From IMG/VR virus record IMGVR_UViG_2734482779_000006, positions 1-27,343 of that record: DNA of 27,343 nucleotides; one strand, written 5' to 3'. The notes below the pieces were generated by a model, which saw only the letters and a program-made list of their open reading frames with translations, did not search any database and had not been told where the DNA came from. The DNA comes from a virus. Its lineage: Duplodnaviria; Heunggongvirae; Uroviricota; Caudoviricetes. Made by a program: the position numbers and the translations under genes. This document shows, piece by piece, positions 685-24,046 of the stretch. The first letter of the stretch is position 1. Every line of letters begins with the position of its first letter.

Positions 685-2016
685 ATGGCTACTTGGCAAC
701 AAGGAATCAACTCAGGCGGCTTTCTTGCTGGTATCGGTGGGCAAAACTCAAATGCGCCAAAGGCAAGTGATGTAAGTGAGGCGTTGGCCTATATTCGCCA
801 GAACAACGAAATGGAGCGTTCAGGTCGCAATAACATCGGCCTTCAGGCGTTGCAGGGACTTGGTAGTGTCGCTCAAACATATCAAGCTGCAAAGCAACAG
901 GAAGCGGATGCTGCATTCCAAAAAGAATATGCGGCAGCCATCCAGTCCGGTGATCGACAGCAGGTTCGAGATCTGATGACCAAATATCCTGGTCAATTAG
1001 AGAAGATTCAGTCTGGTATGAAGTGGGCAGACGAAGACCAGCGTGATGAAATTGGCAATCTAGCGGCAGGCGGTCAAATTGCCTCCATGATGGGTGGTGA
1101 TGCATTTAGCAAGTGGATTGGAAACAATGCAACCAGATTGTCTAATCAGGGGGTAGACCCACAACAACTCCTCAGCATGTATCAAAAAGACCCACAAGCA
1201 ACATCACAACTTATCGGACAATATGGTCAGTTTGCATTAGGCCATGAAAAGTATTGGGATTTGCAGGACAAGATGGTTGGTCGCCAACTTGAGAAAGGGC
1301 GATTGGATGAAAGCATCCGTCAGGCTGATATGGAGAATGCGAGAGGATGGGCAAATATCCAGAACGCTCAACTAGACAGGGCTCAGCGGGCACAAATGCA
1401 TAATGATAACGTCGCCCTGAAGTTGCAGGAATTAGGGATGAAACAACAGGAAAGCGGAAAGATTGACCCAAAACTTGTTCGAGATCTGAATAGTGATATT
1501 AATGGGTTCTCAAAGAATTATTCTGCAATGCGCAGTGCTTCTGACAACCTACAAGCCCTTGGGAAGCGCAACACTCCAGCCGCGCAGTTGGGAATGATTT
1601 TCAACTATATGAAATCGCTGGATCCGCAATCTGTGGTACGCGAAGGTGAGCAAGTGCAGGTAAAACGCACTGATGGAATATTCGGCACACTTGGTAACTA
1701 TGTTAGCCAATTATCTAACGGCAAGATGCTGAATAATGAGCAAGTCCAAGACTTAATCAACACCTCAAAACTGATGGCAAATACTGAAGGCGAAAAGTTT
1801 AACCAGCAAATGGATGATTATCTTTCAACTTATGGAGATTCTCTCCCCAGCGGACTAACTAAGCAATTGCAATCCAGAAAAGCCAAGCTGTATGAAGATA
1901 TTCAGCAGCCTGCGCAACAACAGAGCAATAACCAACAACCGACAAATACCCAACAGCAGCAGAGTCAATCCGGATCATATACCTCAAAATCAGGCATTCA
2001 ATTTACGGTGGAATGA
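685..2016 (+). CDS. probable P22 gp20-like ejection protein
   Basis: 443-aa ORF with RBS AAGGTGGG upstream of ATG 685; synteny position between gp7-like and gp16-like genes; Q-rich C-terminus. Confidence 0.5.
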
Positions 2017-3854
2017 TGAAAGTAACTGCAAACGGAAAGACATTTACCTTCCCTGATGGTACGAGCACGGAAGATATTGGCACCGCCATTGATGAGTATT
2101 TTGCTGGTCAGGCTGTTCAGCAACAAACAGTTAATCAGGCCAATAATGAACCAGCGCGTGAAGAACCATCATTGATGCAACAAGCTGGCGATTGGCTCAC
2201 TGGTGGTCAAAGTGCAGGGCAAATTGCAGAACAGGCTGGTCGTGGTCTGGTAAACATACCATTTGACGTATTGCAGGGTGGCGCAAGTCTGATTAATGCA
2301 ATCAGTCAGGGGCTTGGTGGGCCAAAAGTTTTGGATGATGTTTATCGTCCAGTAGACAGACCGACAGACCCCTACGCTCAAGTTGGAGAAACAATTGGCG
2401 GGTATTTAGTTCCAGGAGTTGGAACGGCAGGAAGCATGGCTATTGGATCACTGGCAGAGGCCGCAAATCAGAAAGGCGATTTCGCACAAAATGCAGCTAA
2501 AAATGCCGGAGTTAACCTTGCCGCTCAGGGTGTTCTTTCCGCAGCAGCAAAGGGAATAGGGCGTGGAATAACGGCTATAAAAGGTGATATTGCGCCAGAA
2601 GTGGCGAAGAAAATTGCCACATCAGAATCGATGGGCGTGACACCAATGACATCTGATGTTATCACGCCGAAAAATGCTTTCACTCGTGGCCTTACTCAGG
2701 ATGCCGAGGGGGCTTTGCTCGGGACAGGCTCAAAGCGAGCTGAGCAATATGCAACGCGTAGTAAGCTGGTAAGTAATTATTTTGACCGTTTTGGTGAGTA
2801 CAACCCTGATGATGTGGTGAAATCTCTGACCACCACGTTAAGGGGGCGGAAGGATGCTGCTGGCGCTGTTATCAATGACGTCACCAATAAAATGGGTAAT
2901 GCCGCAGTTGATACTACAAATACCATGAATGCTCTGAATACAGCGATCGCAAGACAGGAACGGCTTGGGACTTCTGCCAATCAAAGCCTGCTTACATCCT
3001 TGCGTAACCTACGTGAAGAATTAGCAAACCCTGCAACTGATTTGGATGTTACGTTTGATCTCTTGCGCCAGCACAGAACAGCATTTAGATCTAATGTTCA
3101 GGGAGATGCCATGGTCTTCCCCAACCAGGCAAAAGCAGCTACCAATATGGTAGAGAATGCAATGTCAAAAGACCTTCGTAACGCAGTTGCTAAAAACCTC
3201 GGTGCTTCAGACGCAGCAAAATACCTTAAAGCAAATTCCGATTATGCAAACGTTTATAATAAGGTGCTTAATAAAAACATTGCTAACAAGCTCAACAAGG
3301 CAAGCAGTGAAGCCAGTCCTGAACTTATAAATACTGTTGTATTAAGCAGAAAACCATCTGACGTGAAACGAATCTGGAGCGCATTGGATGATAAAGGGAA
3401 AGATGCTATGCGTGCAGCTTACGTCAGCAAAATAGCGGAAAAGGCCGGTGACTCTCCAGCCAAGTTCATCACGGAAGTTAATAAGCTGAAATCTCAGTCA
3501 GGCGGTGAAATTTACAACACTATTTTTTCTGGAAAGCACATGAAAGAACTTGATGCTCTTCATGAAGTTCTACAGCAAACAGCAAGATCAGACACCGCAA
3601 ATGTAGTAACTCAGACGGGGCAATCGCAAGCCAACAGGATAAGGACGATTGGCGCAACTACGACTCTTGGCGTATCAATGGGGCTTGAGGCTGGTTTCGG
3701 TGCAATGATGCGCTTGTATGAATCCAAAGCAGCAAGGAATGCGCTCTTACGTCTGGCAAACACTAAAGCTGGAACGCCAGCTTATGAAAGAGCGCTAAAT
3801 CAGGCGGCTACTGCCGTGCGCCCGCTCTTAGTTAACGAAGCTACCCGGCAGTAG
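2013..3854 (+). CDS. probable P22 gp16-like ejection protein
   Basis: 613-aa ORF; start ATG overlaps upstream stop (ATGA at 2013-2016), indicating translational coupling; size and position match P22 gp16 (about 609 aa). Confidence 0.5.
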
Positions 3855-3876: not shown

Positions 3877-4371
3877 TTATTTTATAGTTTTTATGAATTC
3901 TTTATTAAATCCCTTCGCTTCTCCTGGGTATCTTCCGAAGACAATTTTTATAAAAACAGAAAAAATAAAGATAGCAACGCTTAACAACAATTGCAGTATC
4001 ATTGGAACCCAAAGAACTACAGGCTCTATATTCATGAAACCAAATATTCTTCCGGCGATCATGGCGAAGTACCACACTGTTATCAGCAAACTTAGTGGCA
4101 TATGAATTACTGATATTACCAATCCAAGAGCATCAGTAATTCTGTTTTCAAATTTTTCAGGGGAAAACTTTTCTTTAAGGTAATTCAGTGCGCAGGCCTC
4201 ATTCTCTGGATTTTCAGCATTTTTCCCTATAGCAATAGAAATCTCAGATATCCTTGATTCAATTCTTTTACGTTTAATAAAACTAGAAAAAAAGAACCAC
4301 GCAATCTGCAACCCTATCCCCAGAAATAGAGTTGCGGCAACTAGCACAGCGTAACTCATAGAATCAGACAC
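3877..4371 (-). CDS. small inner-membrane protein, SieA-like superinfection-exclusion candidate
   Basis: Several hydrophobic helices; sits immediately after the gp16-like gene on the opposite strand, where P22 carries sieA; start uncertain (in-frame GTG at 4371 with AGGAGG 5 nt upstream, or ATG at 4359). Confidence 0.4.
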
Positions 4372-4435
4372 ACCAACCTCCTTAGTTTTGTGCAGGATAC
4401 CAGATGATAATGTGTAGTTGGAGTAGCGCGGTTGT

Positions 4436-4526
4436 AATGCAAGCATTTTGTTTTGGTTTTATGCTTGCTTGTATGTGTGTACAGTGTATATAATGCAAGC
4501 ATATATCACAACAAGGTGCTTGCATT
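4436..4526. promoter_or_regulatory. divergent promoter/operator region with four copies of the palindromic motif TGCAAGCA/TGCTTGCA
   Basis: Motif at 4438-4445, 4462-4468, 4494-4501 and 4517-4524; sigma70-like -35 TTGCTT (4465-4470) and -10 TATAAT (4489-4494) overlap copies 2 and 3; copy 4 overlaps the RBS AAGGTG of the 4527 gene. Confidence 0.5.
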
Positions 4527-5519
4527 ATGACAGAAAAGAAAAGTAGTGAAGGGAAAGCTAAGGGCGGGATCGCTCGCGCAAAGTCGCTGACTAAAGAGCA
4601 GCGTTCTGAAATAGCAAAGAAAGCAGCGGCTGCAAGATGGAAGGATAAACCATTAATTGCCACGCATAAGGGATCGTTCCAGCATGAATTCGGGATTGAT
4701 GTTGAGTGCTATGTGTTAAATGATGATAACAAAACTGCCGTTATTAGCCAGAGAGGCATGGGAGAAGCGATTGGTCTTGGCGAAGGTGGCAGCAGGTTGC
4801 CAAAGTTTATTCAGGGGAAAACTATTTCTCAGTATATTGGGCATGAATTAAGGGCAAAACTTGAAAATCCTCTTATTTTTCAATACAAACAGGCGGGCAC
4901 GAACACTCCAGCTAATCCTGTAATACATGGCTACGATGTAACAATATTAATTGATTTATGTCGAGCAATCTCTAATGCTAAAGCTGAAGGTAAGTTGCTT
5001 TCCAGTCAGGAAGGGATTGCTAAGCAAGCCAGAATCATTATTGATGCATCAGCCAAGGCGGGCATTCAGGGGCTTGTTTATGCTTTGGCAGGGTATGACA
5101 GAACAAAAGAAGAGGTAATTCAAGCATATAAGCGATATGTTGCTGAAGAGGCTCGTGAGTATGAAAGAGAGTTCACCCCTGAACTTTATGAGCATTGGTA
5201 TCGTTTGTATGGTATAGACAAACCAGTTAGAGGGCGACCATGGGCGTTTAAATATCTTACGATAGATCACATTTATTACCCATTAGCCAGAAGTGAAGGA
5301 AAGGTATTTAATTTAGCAAAAACTTCAAAAGAAGAGAAAGGCAGCAAAAACGATAAAATACACCAGTTTTTATCAGAGGTTGGAGTTAAGGCTCTTAGAA
5401 CCCAAATAGGTAAGGTTACTGGTATTGCAATGGTTTCTGATACTCGAGAAGAGTATGAGAAATACATAGATGAAAAGGTTATTGGACAAAGAACCATAGA
5501 CTTAAAAGATAAAGAATAA
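4527..5519 (+). CDS. hypothetical phage accessory protein with a basic K/A/R-rich N-terminal segment
   Basis: 330-aa ORF with good RBS and a downstream intrinsic terminator; N-terminus KGGIARAKSLTKEQRSEIAKKAAAARW suggests nucleic-acid binding; located between sieA-like and mnt. Confidence 0.6.
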   Translation: MTEKKSSEGKAKGGIARAKSLTKEQRSEIAKKAAAARWKDKPLIATHKGSFQHEFGIDVECYVLNDDNKTAVISQRGMGEAIGLGEGGSRLPKFIQGKTISQYIGHELRAKLENPLIFQYKQAGTNTPANPVIHGYDVTILIDLCRAISNAKAEGKLLSSQEGIAKQARIIIDASAKAGIQGLVYALAGYDRTKEEVIQAYKRYVAEEAREYEREFTPELYEHWYRLYGIDKPVRGRPWAFKYLTIDHIYYPLARSEGKVFNLAKTSKEEKGSKNDKIHQFLSEVGVKALRTQIGKVTGIAMVSDTREEYEKYIDEKVIGQRTIDLKDKE

Positions 5520-5520
5520 G

Positions 5521-5548
5521 AAAAACCCACCGTCAGGTGGGTTTTTTG
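5521..5548. terminator. bidirectional intrinsic terminator
   Basis: Stem ACCCACC/GGTGGGT with loop GTCA, flanked by an A-run upstream and a T-run downstream; lies between convergent genes ending at 5519 and 5533. Confidence 0.6.
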
Positions 5549-5784
5549 TTTTCTTGCATGTTCCTCAGCGTCTCAAGCAGCGCCTCTTTGAATTTGTCAG
5601 CTTCTTGCTGAGCAAATGACTCAACTGACTTTGGCGACCTATCTTCATCAATCGCGGCCTGCAAAATCATGACGATCTCGGAGTTAACAGAGCGACCATT
5701 TTTTGATGCTCTGACAGCAAGAGCCTCACGTAAAGATTCAGGGATTCTTACCGTAGTTGGAGAAATTGACACACCCTTTGCCAT
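5533..5784 (-). CDS. mnt: Mnt-like ribbon-helix-helix repressor
   Basis: 83 aa, the same length as P22 Mnt; conserved RHH core (RIPESLREALAVRASKNGRSVNSEIV against P22 FRMPMEVREKLKFRAEANGRSMNSELL); divergent from arc as in P22 immI. Confidence 0.8.
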   Translation of the reverse strand: MAKGVSISPTTVRIPESLREALAVRASKNGRSVNSEIVMILQAAIDEDRSPKSVESFAQQEADKFKEALLETLRNMQENKKPT

Positions 5785-5898: not shown

Positions 5899-6051
5899 AT
5901 GGAGAAAGAAATAAGTAAGATTTTGGTAAGGATGCCGCAGTCGTTAAAGGATGCTATCGGTAGCAGGGCAAAGGAAGAGTGCAGGTCGTTTAACTCAGAG
6001 GTTATCAAGCGCCTGATAGACAGCCTGAAGAGAGAGGGGGTGGCGATATGA
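5899..6051 (+). CDS. arc: Arc-like ribbon-helix-helix repressor
   Basis: 50 aa from ATG 5899 (GGAGGG RBS); RMPQSLKDAIGSRAKEECRSFNSEVIKRLIDSLKREG aligns with P22 Arc RWPREVLDLVRKVAEENGRSVNSEIYQRVMESFKKEG. Confidence 0.75.
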   Translation: MEKEISKILVRMPQSLKDAIGSRAKEECRSFNSEVIKRLIDSLKREGVAI

Positions 6052-6230
6052 ATAAAGAAGATGGCTTTAAGTGCTCCTTCTGCGGAAAGCCTCAGCATGA
6101 ATGTGCAATGTTGATTCGCGCTAAAGCAGAGATATTTATCTGTAGTGGTTGTGTATCTCTTTGCGTTGAAGCGATGGGGAAAGAGTTAAATTCTAGAAAA
6201 ACAATGTTAGATGTGAACATAAAACAGTGA
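6048..6230 (+). CDS. small zinc-ribbon protein resembling the ClpX N-terminal zinc-binding domain
   Basis: 60 aa; CSFCGKPQHE...IFICSGCVSLC matches the ClpX motif CSFCGKSQHE...YICDECVDLC (C4 zinc site); start ATG overlaps the arc stop (ATGA at 6048-6051). Confidence 0.6.
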   Translation: MNKEDGFKCSFCGKPQHECAMLIRAKAEIFICSGCVSLCVEAMGKELNSRKTMLDVNIKQ

Positions 6231-6292: not shown

Positions 6293-7195
6293 ATGAATAG
6301 TATAGCAATTTTAGAAGCAGTAAACACCTCTTACGTACCTTTCAATGGTCAGCAGATTATCACCGCCATGGCTGCCGGAGTTGCATATGTTGCGATGAAG
6401 CCAATCGTTGAAAACCTCGGAATGAGCTGGGGTACTCAGCAACAAAAACTTATGAAACAACTAGATAAGTTCAACTGTATTCATATGAATATGGTTGCTG
6501 CTGATGGAAAGCTTCGTAAGTTACTCTGCCTTCCTTTGAAGAAGTTAAATGGGTGGCTGTTCAGCATTAACCCTGAGAAAGTTCGTGCTGACATCCGCGA
6601 TAAACTTATTCAGTACCAGGAAGAATGCTTTACTGTGCTGCATGACTACTGGACGAAGGGAAAGGCAGAAAATGCACGTAAGAAAACATCTGTTGATGAC
6701 AGGACTCCGCTTCGTGATGCTGTAAATATGCTAGTCAGCAAAAAGCATCTAATGTACCCAGAAGCTTATGCAATGATTCATCAGCGTTTCAATGTGGAAA
6801 GTATTGAAGAGCTTGATGCATCTCAGATACCGCAAGCCGTAGAGTACATCCACAGGGTAGTGCTTGAAGGTGAGTTCATTGGCAAACAAGAGAAGAAGAC
6901 CAACGAGCTTTCTGCAAAAGAAGCAAACAGTCTTGTATGGTTATGGGATTATGCCAACCGCTCACAGGCATTATTCCGCGAACTGTATCCGGCATTAAAA
7001 CAAATTCAATCGAACTATTCCGGCAGATGCTACGACTACGGTCATGAATTCTCGTATGTTCTCGGAATGGCGAGAGACGTTTTAATAAACCACACACGAG
7101 ATGTTGATATTAATGAGCCAGACGGACCAACGAATCTTTCCGCATGGATGAGACTTAAGAATAAAGAATTGCCTCCTTCAGTACATAACTACTGA
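6293..7195 (+). CDS. ant: Ant antirepressor
   Basis: N-terminus [22 protein letters not shown] matches the P22 Ant N-terminus as recalled; the true start is ATG 6293 rather than the TTG at 6263; followed by an intrinsic terminator. Confidence 0.85.
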
Positions 7196-7214
7196 CAGAT
7201 AACCAACGCAACGA

Positions 7215-7238
7215 CCCAGCTTCGGCTGGGTTTTTTTA
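7215..7238 (+). terminator. rho-independent terminator after ant
   Basis: Hairpin CCCAGC-TTCG-GCTGGG followed by TTTTTTT. Confidence 0.7.
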
Positions 7239-7305
7239 TGCCCAAAATTCACCGTAGCTACGCTGCGGCGATTCCTTGTATCTGGAGCAAATTAAATGAC
7301 AGACA

Positions 7306-7794
7306 TTATCTAAAACAAGCAAACTCGCCATGATATTTTTCCCTGAATGCAATAGACATCAATTCGGCCAGCTCAATATCATCGGTATACCCAAGGCAAA
7401 TAGACTTACCTTTTAGTTTGAACATAACTTTATATGTGTTTTTCCCTTTAAGAAGATGAACTCCTTTTATACCTGTATTGGATGATGAAACGCTGTTGGT
7501 TTTATTCTGACCTCTGGTTACTTCTCTTAGGTTTGAAATTCTATTGTCATTTTTAACCCCGTTAATATGGTCAATTAACCCTTTAGGCCAGCATCCTTTC
7601 ATATAAAACCAAGCAAGTCGGTGGCAAAGATACGATTTTCCATTAATCCGTATTGATAAGTAGTCGGCCTGTGAGTTCGTCTTAAATCCAGCAACCTTTC
7701 CGATACTGGAGCTACCAGAAGCTATCTTCCAAGTGAAGACGCCTGTTTCTGGGTTGTAGTTGAGTGAAGAGGTTAATTCTTTATGAGTAATCAT
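7306..7794 (-). CDS. HNH homing-type endonuclease (HNH_3/AP2-like)
   Basis: Motifs CHRLAW...GLIDHINGVKNDNRISNLR typical of phage HNH endonucleases; ATG at 7794 has better RBS spacing (AAGGA plus 6 nt) than the ATG at 7800. Confidence 0.75.
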   Translation of the reverse strand: MITHKELTSSLNYNPETGVFTWKIASGSSSIGKVAGFKTNSQADYLSIRINGKSYLCHRLAWFYMKGCWPKGLIDHINGVKNDNRISNLREVTRGQNKTNSVSSSNTGIKGVHLLKGKNTYKVMFKLKGKSICLGYTDDIELAELMSIAFREKYHGEFACFR

Positions 7795-7820
7795 ATTCAT
7801 TCCTTAAATAGAGATTCACT

Positions 7821-23971: not shown

Positions 23972-24046
23972 TGGTGTCCCCTGCAGGAATCGAACCTGCA
24001 ATTAGCCCTTAGGAGGGGCTCGTTATATCCATTTAACTAAGAGGAC
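23972..24046 (-). tRNA. argW: tRNA-Arg (anticodon CCU)
   Basis: 75-nt sequence GTCCTCTTAGTTAAATGGATATAACGAGCCCCTCCTAAGGGCTAATTGCAGGTTCGATTCCTGCAGGGGACACCA on the minus strand; cloverleaf with CCU anticodon and encoded CCA end. Confidence 0.9.

Follow-up and report, generated by a model that had tools for sequence, protein, structure and literature searches.

What controls the expression of an accessory gene carried among the immunity genes of a phage, and what does that control say about the protein it encodes? The question is raised by a single-gene locus in the stretch of DNA analyzed here (the window), 27,343 nucleotides of the tailed-phage record IMGVR_UViG_2734482779_000006 (IMG/VR), in which a gene for a 330-residue protein lies between a sieA-like superinfection exclusion gene and an mnt-like repressor gene, in the region that corresponds to the immunity I (immI) region of phage P22. 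The product belongs to the P63C family (Pfam PF10546; Mx8 p63 C-terminal domain), and four short inverted-repeat sites are crowded into the DNA ahead of its start codon. A first-pass annotation had proposed that these sites imply tight repression by a regulator that it left unnamed. The analysis points to the product itself: the gene is most likely negatively autoregulated (with a probability of about 0.6), its protein being predicted to bind the four ATGCAAGCAT-type sites, probably by means of a short N-terminal motif.

The exact 8-mer TGCAAGCA was found at 4438-4445 and 4494-4501 and its reverse complement TGCTTGCA at 4517-4524, and a fourth copy with one mismatch, TGCTTGCT, occupies positions 4462-4469. 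These copies form the cores of four 10-bp sites of alternating orientation, with start-to-start spacings of 24, 32 and 23 nt, all of which are contained in the 167-bp gap between the sieA-like and the P63C genes (Table 1). Three exact 8-mers in the whole 27.3-kb window are unremarkable as a count (1.8 expected; at least three in 26 of 100 shuffles); it is their clustering that is non-random, all sites falling within 89 bp. When 10-mers with at most one mismatch are considered, four of the six copies in the window belong to the cluster (mean for the shuffled whole window, 1.8). The earlier statement that the four sites cover the -35, the -10 and the ribosome-binding site holds for sites 2, 3 and 4, which overlie the -35, the -10 together with +1, and the gap between the Shine-Dalgarno (SD) sequence and the ATG, respectively, whereas site 1 lies upstream and site 2 carries the mismatch. 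The transcription start predicted from this geometry is at about 4500-4502. Two other promoter assignments were tried and rejected: a sigma-54 promoter (GG-N8-TTGC, 4455-4468), ruled out because the GG is not conserved in other cassettes, and a leftward sieA promoter using site 1 as its -35, for which no acceptable -10 was found by eye.

The sites travel with the gene family. The same four sites precede the start codon in five distant homologues (51-68% identity), namely those of a Burkholderiales metagenome-assembled genome (MAG; 68%), a deltaproteobacterial MAG (58%), Massilia, Polynucleobacter and Granulosicoccus (about 52% each). Among viral contigs, 80 loci yielded 71 distinct upstream regions, and all but 3 of these contain the sites. 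The layout recurs ahead of homologues in Pseudomonas phage Lodos, Paracoccus phage Pkon1 and Burkholderia Bups phi1, as well as ahead of ORF23 of phage ST104, which is 32% identical and occupies a different locus, between cI and gene 24. Actinobacterial members carry the variant sites TGCACGCA/TGCGTGCA, and Burkholderia phage DC1 has 9-mer sites. Altogether the layout was found in alpha-, beta-, gamma- and deltaproteobacteria and, in its variant form, in actinobacterial phages, down to about 30% protein identity.

The geometry of the cluster was scored strictly in 26 non-redundant cassettes comprising 104 oriented sites. The sites keep the forward-reverse-forward-reverse order, with start-to-start spacings of 20-24, 30-32 and 20-26 nt, and in 25 of these cassettes site 4 ends at -1 to +1 nt relative to the start codon. 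Over the 104 sites the GCAAGC core hardly varies, and the flanks and spacers carry no information. A TAnnAT adjoining site 3 is kept across cassettes, and homologous cassettes have a purine-rich stretch between sites 3 and 4; since with the 30-32-nt spacing the TTGCA in site 2 and the -10 are 16-18 nt apart across the family, operator geometry is at the same time promoter geometry.

The link is near-exclusive also when approached from the sites. A scan of 2.9 million viral contigs for a pattern of three sites in series returned 66 clusters, 63 of which lie directly ahead of a P63C gene, the remaining three being an unrelated iteron-like repeat. This repeat, CTGTGCAAGCA, forms arrays that precede a gene for 85-87 residues in two related viral contigs (L107, 2660-2760; L114, 8800-9060); the arrays share the 8-mer and not the layout, and no P63C gene is present there. 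Two existing annotations are touched by the cluster: the deposited start of ORF23 in phage ST104 (L171, 2417-3496) falls inside it, with the homologous ATG located right after site 4, about 12 codons downstream, and in gp34 of Gordonia phage Petra two GCAAGC-type near-sites lie just within the annotated coding sequence.

The protein itself is a member of a large family. The 330-residue open reading frame (ORF) with a Lys/Ala-rich N-terminus described in the first-pass annotation was reproduced by translation (4527-5519; N-terminus MTEKKSSEGKAKGGIARAKSLTKEQRSEIAKKAAAARWKDK), and remote homology searching assigned it to the P63C family, with neither a defence model nor an informative fold among the results. 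The Pfam model scored 35.9 bits against a cut-off of 26.1 and spans only about 90 of the 330 residues (202-289, positions 5130-5393), and the match to phrog_2384, a PHROG entry of unknown function, covers residues 6-328 of 330 (E 5e-103). The domain was matched in all 73 aligned relatives, and it was the only one detected by the Pfam scan of the protein and these relatives; identical proteins at NCBI are named 'P63C domain-containing protein'. Homologues number 2766 (about 2,800 clusters at 90% identity), with 60-89% identity over 92-100% of the length, and sequence identity across bacterial classes is unusually high, at 60-70%.

The AlphaFold2 model (predicted local distance difference test score, pLDDT, 90.4) has three parts: the N-terminal motif, modelled as a helical hairpin with pLDDT 84-92 across residues 11-30, a mixed alpha/beta domain that weakly resembles winged-helix DNA binders, and an all-helical C-terminal domain. 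The positions conserved in the family are mainly hydrophobic or glycine, and no obvious catalytic constellation was seen among them. NCBIfam and PDB sequence searches with the protein gave no match, the model found no meaningful structural neighbour in the PDB with Foldseek (E above 1), and no family of the PADLOC-DB 2.0 defence models was matched at E <=0.01. A weak resemblance of the N-terminal motif to the histone H2A tail is probably compositional and was disregarded.

The N-terminal motif is the part of the protein with which the sites co-occur. Seventy non-redundant lineages were tabulated, two of them being reassigned by eye; the motif together with at least three sites was found in 60, and the motif with variant TGCACGCA sites in one. 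The other nine lack the motif, and each has 0-1 sites, the level expected by chance, so that a cluster without the motif was seen in none of the 70. Sites are present, then, in 60 of 61 motif-bearing lineages versus 0 of 9 motif-less ones, which retain the alpha/beta and helical domains and come from several unrelated contexts. Promoter and motif also form a unit in recombination. The promoter plus codons 1 to about 40 (4403-4656) is a shared module present in 67 of 5426 complete Escherichia coli genomes, where the core allele of the window occurs in just 3; the module is joined at codons 39-43 to core alleles merely 52% identical, and this joint coincides with the boundary between motif and core.

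Since no neighbour is constant except the P63C gene itself, and the sites track the motif, the gene is most likely self-repressed. Repeated dyad sites over a core promoter, as an autoregulated gene would have, are present here, and they are inherited with the P63C gene and with no other gene. In the mechanism suggested by these patterns, the protein product would bind its own four sites, arranged as two inverted pairs, the candidate binding module being the 30-residue KGG-ARA...ARW two-helix motif. Occupancy of sites 2, 3 and 4 (the -35; the end of the -10 and the start; the SD-ATG gap) would exclude RNA polymerase, and the protein would in this way be held at a low, buffered level in the lysogen. 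Of the earlier proposal, the part based on four sites over the promoter is kept, and the regulator is now probably the protein itself, given that the sites track the gene family and the motif. The family and its annotation were already known. For the promoter-operator with its four conserved sites, for the link between it and the motif, and for the modular joint at codon 40, no description was found in annotations or in the searchable literature.

Several points weigh against this reading. The N-terminal motif matched no known DNA-binding fold in Pfam and PDB searches, the product contains no recognised DNA-binding domain, and the searchable literature on P63C function, PF10546 and the site sequence held nothing relevant. 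A simple consensus scan did not call the promoter, whose -35 matches at 3 of 6 positions, and the transcription start is positioned from geometry. Motif and sites adjoin on the DNA, and their joint loss could represent the replacement of one 5' block rather than functional coupling. In addition, no GCAAGC sites were found upstream of four genes (L004, L045, L075, L098) for small proteins carrying a copy of the motif, which implies that the motif alone may not fix specificity.

These small proteins and other arrangements of family members deserve a brief description. The motif copies are found in hypothetical proteins of 76-80 residues that end in a KGG...ARW sequence (…AVALGRKGGLKGGKARAESLT..R.EIA.KAA.ARW), encoded in L004 (about 6967-7261, minus strand), L045 (about 5978-6215, minus), L075 (about 5947-6196, minus) and L098 (156-437); in the first three the gene is located directly downstream of the P63C gene and convergent with it. 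Genes for IS1595-family transposases lie directly upstream of several P63C genes (L160, 1-408; L163, 350-1255; L165, 2016-2924; L007, 4943-5800; L044/L135), and where the member is motif-less, the transposase stop and the P63C start overlap or almost touch, an arrangement suggestive of co-expression, with the motif-less P63C as a passenger or accessory gene. Two fusions, each a single metagenomic example, were noted: P0154 (L166, 950-2053) combines a motif-less P63C core with a near-complete C-terminal RelB antitoxin domain, and P0192 joins an ABC/AAA_21 (AbiEii-like) ATPase to the P63C domain.

Autoregulation has to be weighed against other explanations of the same cluster. In the first of these the P63C gene is cargo silenced by a separate trans-acting repressor, which could be the Mnt-like or Arc-like protein of the prophage, its main repressor or a host protein. 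Two repressors of the Arc/ribbon-helix-helix (RHH) type are indeed encoded within 400 bp, a Paracoccus phage has a similar arrangement of P63C, Arc-like, Arc and KilA-N genes, and an XRE/cI-type gene is found near the cassette in 42 of 149 loci. Yet no neighbour gene is conserved across cassettes, the search for a conserved partner across these 149 loci having found none, and the same sites occur in contexts devoid of Mnt/Arc and in genomic islands; among the settings recorded are immI regions of the P22 type, places just behind cI-type or actinophage immunity repressors, the vicinity of integrases, and a genomic island with an Mrr-type nuclease. A host factor acting on the sites would need to exist universally from gamma- to deltaproteobacteria, with a variant form in actinobacteria, and we know of no host factor with such a site. 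Homologues without the motif, moreover, occur in comparable hosts and have no sites. A separate repressor is on these grounds considered quite unlikely.

In a second alternative the cluster serves mainly as a DNA decoy or self-marking element comparable to aba, in which the sites, amplified as the prophage replicates, would titrate the protein and spare replication of the phage's own genome. A precedent exists in BstA, a single repressor-adjacent prophage protein whose activity is suppressed by an element in the DNA where bstA begins (PMC8585504), and the P63C paralogue of ST104, with its four sites, occupies that very slot between cI and gene 24. The P63C sites, however, coincide exactly with the -35, -10 and start-codon positions, and their spacing follows promoter geometry, which argues for transcriptional control; besides, the site sequence is identical for all alleles, whereas aba elements are cognate-specific (PMC8585504). 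A role predominantly as decoy appears improbable, and one alongside autoregulation could coexist with it.

A third possibility is that the inverted repeats act as nucleic-acid structure, either as an RNA hairpin that masks the ribosome-binding site together with the start codon (in read-through transcripts, for example) or as a DNA cruciform. The RNA of 4430-4545 would fold at -49 kcal/mol (z -6.6) into a structure in which sites 1 and 4 pair, as do sites 2 and 3, and that of 4486-4545 folds at -18 kcal/mol with the ATG buried. Against this, the -10 adjoins site 3 in every cassette, so that the transcript should start at the end of site 3, and RNA from 4500 onwards is unstructured (-4.6 kcal/mol, z 0.65); sites 1 and 2 lie upstream of the promoter, and what is conserved is the sequence of the sites and not compensatory change. 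Spacer complementarity is at the chance level in the 26 cassettes (mean z 0.23), and a long conserved hairpin was ruled out, the spacers not being complementary in other cassettes. The Rfam search gave generic hairpin (miRNA-precursor) matches alone, all far below threshold, and a known RNA family was rejected. Structure as the basis of the conservation is thought very improbable, and silencing of read-through transcripts may accompany autoregulation as a secondary effect.

The surroundings of the gene bear on the last alternative. The slot between sieA and mnt, which had been described as a variable accessory position, does vary among related prophages. In P22 it contains orf59a and non-coding DNA, and the P63C gene is absent. 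In E. coli LR-64-1 (L010, 2447-3314), where the flanks are 99.9% identical to the window, it contains a Panacea-domain gene with a 139-residue partner, a pair that looks like a toxin-antitoxin type. E. coli MS 21-1 carries the same P63C gene together with a ClpP-like gene and has a different leftward gene, and phage vB_EcoP-611R6 has a P63C allele 52% identical. That the slot holds different genes in related prophages indicates that the P63C gene is cargo and not structural. There is next to no chance that the protein belongs to the conserved core of P22-like phages, be it as a virion, ejection or other component: the gene directly follows the ejection-protein genes (ORFs 685-3854), but it is absent from P22 and from most Lederbergvirus (P22-like) records, its slot is filled by other genes in related prophages, and homologues occur in siphoviruses, satellites, actinobacteriophages and genomic islands.

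Table 1. Features of the P63C locus, with positions in the window.
Feature	Position	Strand	Remarks
P63C-family gene	4527..5519	+	330 aa, ATG start
Cassette-specific regulatory region (four operator sites, predicted promoter, ribosome-binding site)	4403..4526	+	
Operator site 1, ATGCAAGCAT	4437..4446	+	Upstream of -35; first in forward-reverse-forward-reverse layout
Operator site 2, ATGCTTGCTT	4461..4470	-	One mismatch in 8-mer core; contains -35 TTGCTT
Operator site 3, ATGCAAGCAT	4493..4502	+	Over -10 end and predicted transcription start
Operator site 4, GTGCTTGCAT	4516..4525	-	Fills SD-to-ATG gap
-35, TTGCTT	4465..4470	+	Inside site 2; 18-nt spacer to -10
-10 hexamer, TATAAT	4489..4494	+	Perfect; 2-bp overlap with the start of site 3
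Shine-Dalgarno, AAGG	4513..4516	+	Sequence reading
Candidate N-terminal motif K10-W38, KGGxARAxxLxxExRxxIAxKAAxARW	4554..4640	+	Two predicted helices, residues 10-20 and 23-38
Mixed alpha/beta domain, residues 42-138	4650..4940	+	AlphaFold2 model
All-helical C-terminal domain including P63C match	4941..5516	+	AlphaFold2 model, Pfam
Bidirectional intrinsic terminator, shared with convergent mnt-like gene	5520..5547	.	12-bp stem and T run, both strands
sieA-like superinfection exclusion gene, left neighbour, divergent	3877..4359	-	160 aa from ATG at 4359; phrog_7745 E 2.8e-106
mnt-like Arc/RHH repressor gene, right neighbour, convergent	5533..5784	-	83 aa; Pfam Arc E 9e-11

The flanking genes were identified as anticipated by the first-pass annotation, the left one by its phrog_7745 match and the right one as an Arc/RHH gene whose product is 34% identical to P22 Mnt and of equal length. 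Homology to P22 in the region upstream of sieA stops at about 4402, and the block 4369-4642 is about 97% identical among E. coli prophages with differing leftward genes. The best explanation is that positions 4403-5547 constitute a self-contained, horizontally mobile, single-gene cassette made up of a predicted promoter of its own, the P63C gene and a terminator, and lying in the variable sieA-mnt slot of a P22-like E. coli prophage. Atypical base composition was looked for in the cassette and not seen, and a search for tandem repeats found none. Beyond the mnt-like gene follow, in order, an arc-like gene, an ORF for a ClpX-type zinc finger, ant (P22_AR_N and P22_AR_C), an HNH endonuclease and the tailspike region.

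Further features of the neighbourhood were recorded. The ORF between arc and ant (6048-6230, plus strand) encodes a ClpX-type C4 zinc-finger protein of 60 residues, and its start overlaps the arc stop codon; the ClpP-like protease subunit gene of E. coli MS 21-1 lies beside mnt (L001, 4205-4741), and immI regions of E. coli P22-like prophages thus hold Clp-related cargo that P22 lacks. The HNH_3 endonuclease gene (7306-7800, minus strand) is placed between ant and the tailspike gene, on the opposite strand, and also matches the PADLOC homing-endonuclease model. A tRNA-Arg (CCT) gene is located at 23972-24046 (minus strand), well past the tailspike region. The promoter and the coding region for the N-terminus are also overlapped by an antisense ORF of 93 residues (4382-4663, minus strand), and similar ORFs recur in 46 loci. 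Rather than being a gene, it most likely mirrors the conserved Ala/Lys-rich sense sequence. The local gene order of the window is mirrored in the alphaproteobacterial siphovirus Paracoccus phage vB_PkoS_Pkon1 (L179, 1465-3879), where the P63C gene is followed by a convergent Arc-like gene and then by a divergent gene for an Arc-family repressor and a gene for a KilA-N protein.

As to what the core of the protein does, a DNA-directed function expressed in lysogens, such as the exclusion of other phages, can be put forward tentatively, as a possibility, because relatives adjoin prophage repressors, integrases and exclusion genes; the first-pass annotation had likewise thought of exclusion or defence cargo from the position of the gene. 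Such genes, among them sieA/sieB, and toxin-antitoxin genes are repeatedly found beside them. The core is thus placed in classic prophage slots, in which rexAB, bstA, sieA and toxin-antitoxin cargo are also carried. The presumed tight self-limitation suggests that protein dosage matters, and the slots occupied, the Panacea-domain pair that fills the window's slot in a related prophage, the high sequence conservation across classes, the divergence of alleles behind a shared module and the presumed self-limitation would fit an exclusion or other DNA-directed accessory function, a guess that no defence model or informative fold backs. A broader and more doubtful proposal is that P63C could be a widespread single-gene system directed against phages or DNA, in which the motif would be a new sequence-specific module reading ATGCAAGCAT, the cluster would be both operator and copy-number or self-recognition element, and the core alleles would represent target specificities.

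P63C proteins are common in temperate phages and prophages and have been without a function or a regulatory model since the domain was named. With the present analysis, a gene so far merely labelled hypothetical becomes a defined unit with a portable promoter-operator, a near-invariant 10-bp site, a 30-residue candidate motif and a recombination boundary, the domain boundary being the place where natural recombination swaps the effector part. If the proposed regulation is correct, the promoter and motif would provide a compact, broad-host-range, self-buffering expression module and a new DNA-recognition motif, as well as a lead to the role of the conserved core; the finding would gain interest if the motif proved to be a new DNA-reading module or the core a defence protein. 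Should autoregulation not be confirmed, some other reason would still have to be found for the sites being so deeply conserved.

Among known systems, the autoregulated antitoxins of type II and IV systems and Abi regulators such as AbiEi resemble the organization proposed here in having a DNA-binding end joined to a functional domain, inverted repeats over the promoter, mobility and enrichment in prophages. The N-terminal DNA-binding domain of AbiEi represses its own promoter. In the P63C relative P0154 it is a RelB antitoxin domain, located at the C-terminus, that takes the place of the motif-bearing end. Unlike antitoxin and Abi systems, P63C has no conserved partner toxin gene in the 149 loci, no matches to toxin-antitoxin or Abi models and no known helix-turn-helix or RHH domain.

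The cassette also resembles a moron in the sense of Hendrix, as exemplified by lambda rexAB and P22 sieA/sieB: it adds a gene between conserved ones, with a terminator and a predicted promoter of its own, is absent from close relatives and lies beside genes expressed in lysogens. Presence and absence among colinear phages is documented by orf59a in P22, the Panacea pair in LR-64-1 and the P63C alleles in MS 21-1 and 611R6, and a terminator of its own lies at 5520-5547. The promoter is represented by promoter-like elements of family-conserved geometry, yet the consensus scan made no call and the start is a predicted one. To our knowledge, classical morons do not carry a family-conserved promoter-operator set.

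With Mnt and Arc of P22 immI the locus shares the genome region and the placement of dyad operators over promoter elements, which in the P63C case too would serve tight repression, and mnt-like and arc-like genes are its neighbours. Those proteins, in contrast, are small dedicated RHH repressors that act on Pant and Pmnt through different operator sequences, whereas the presumed repressor module of P63C is a 30-residue helical motif fused to a protein of 290 residues and would act on its own promoter only.

A functional parallel to the dual role proposed for the four-site cluster is the BstA-aba system. BstA is a single prophage protein encoded in a repressor-adjacent slot, with a demonstrated defence phenotype, and aba, 63 bp of DNA with terminal direct repeats, extends over the start of bstA and suppresses BstA activity in a manner specific to the cognate protein (Owen et al., 2021; PMC8585504). 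Both systems consist of a single prophage gene with its own terminator in a hot spot for lysogeny and immunity functions, and both combine a predicted DNA-binding N-terminal part (in P63C a candidate one) and a second domain with a DNA element over the gene start. They share neither sequence nor fold kinship, a KilA-N match having been looked for in P63C and not found, and the P63C element differs from aba in comprising four inverted 10-bp sites that are the same across alleles and lie on promoter elements. In the window the P63C gene is located in immI and not, as bstA, after the main repressor; in ST104, Kuwabara and an Azotobacter prophage, P63C paralogues do follow the prophage repressor.

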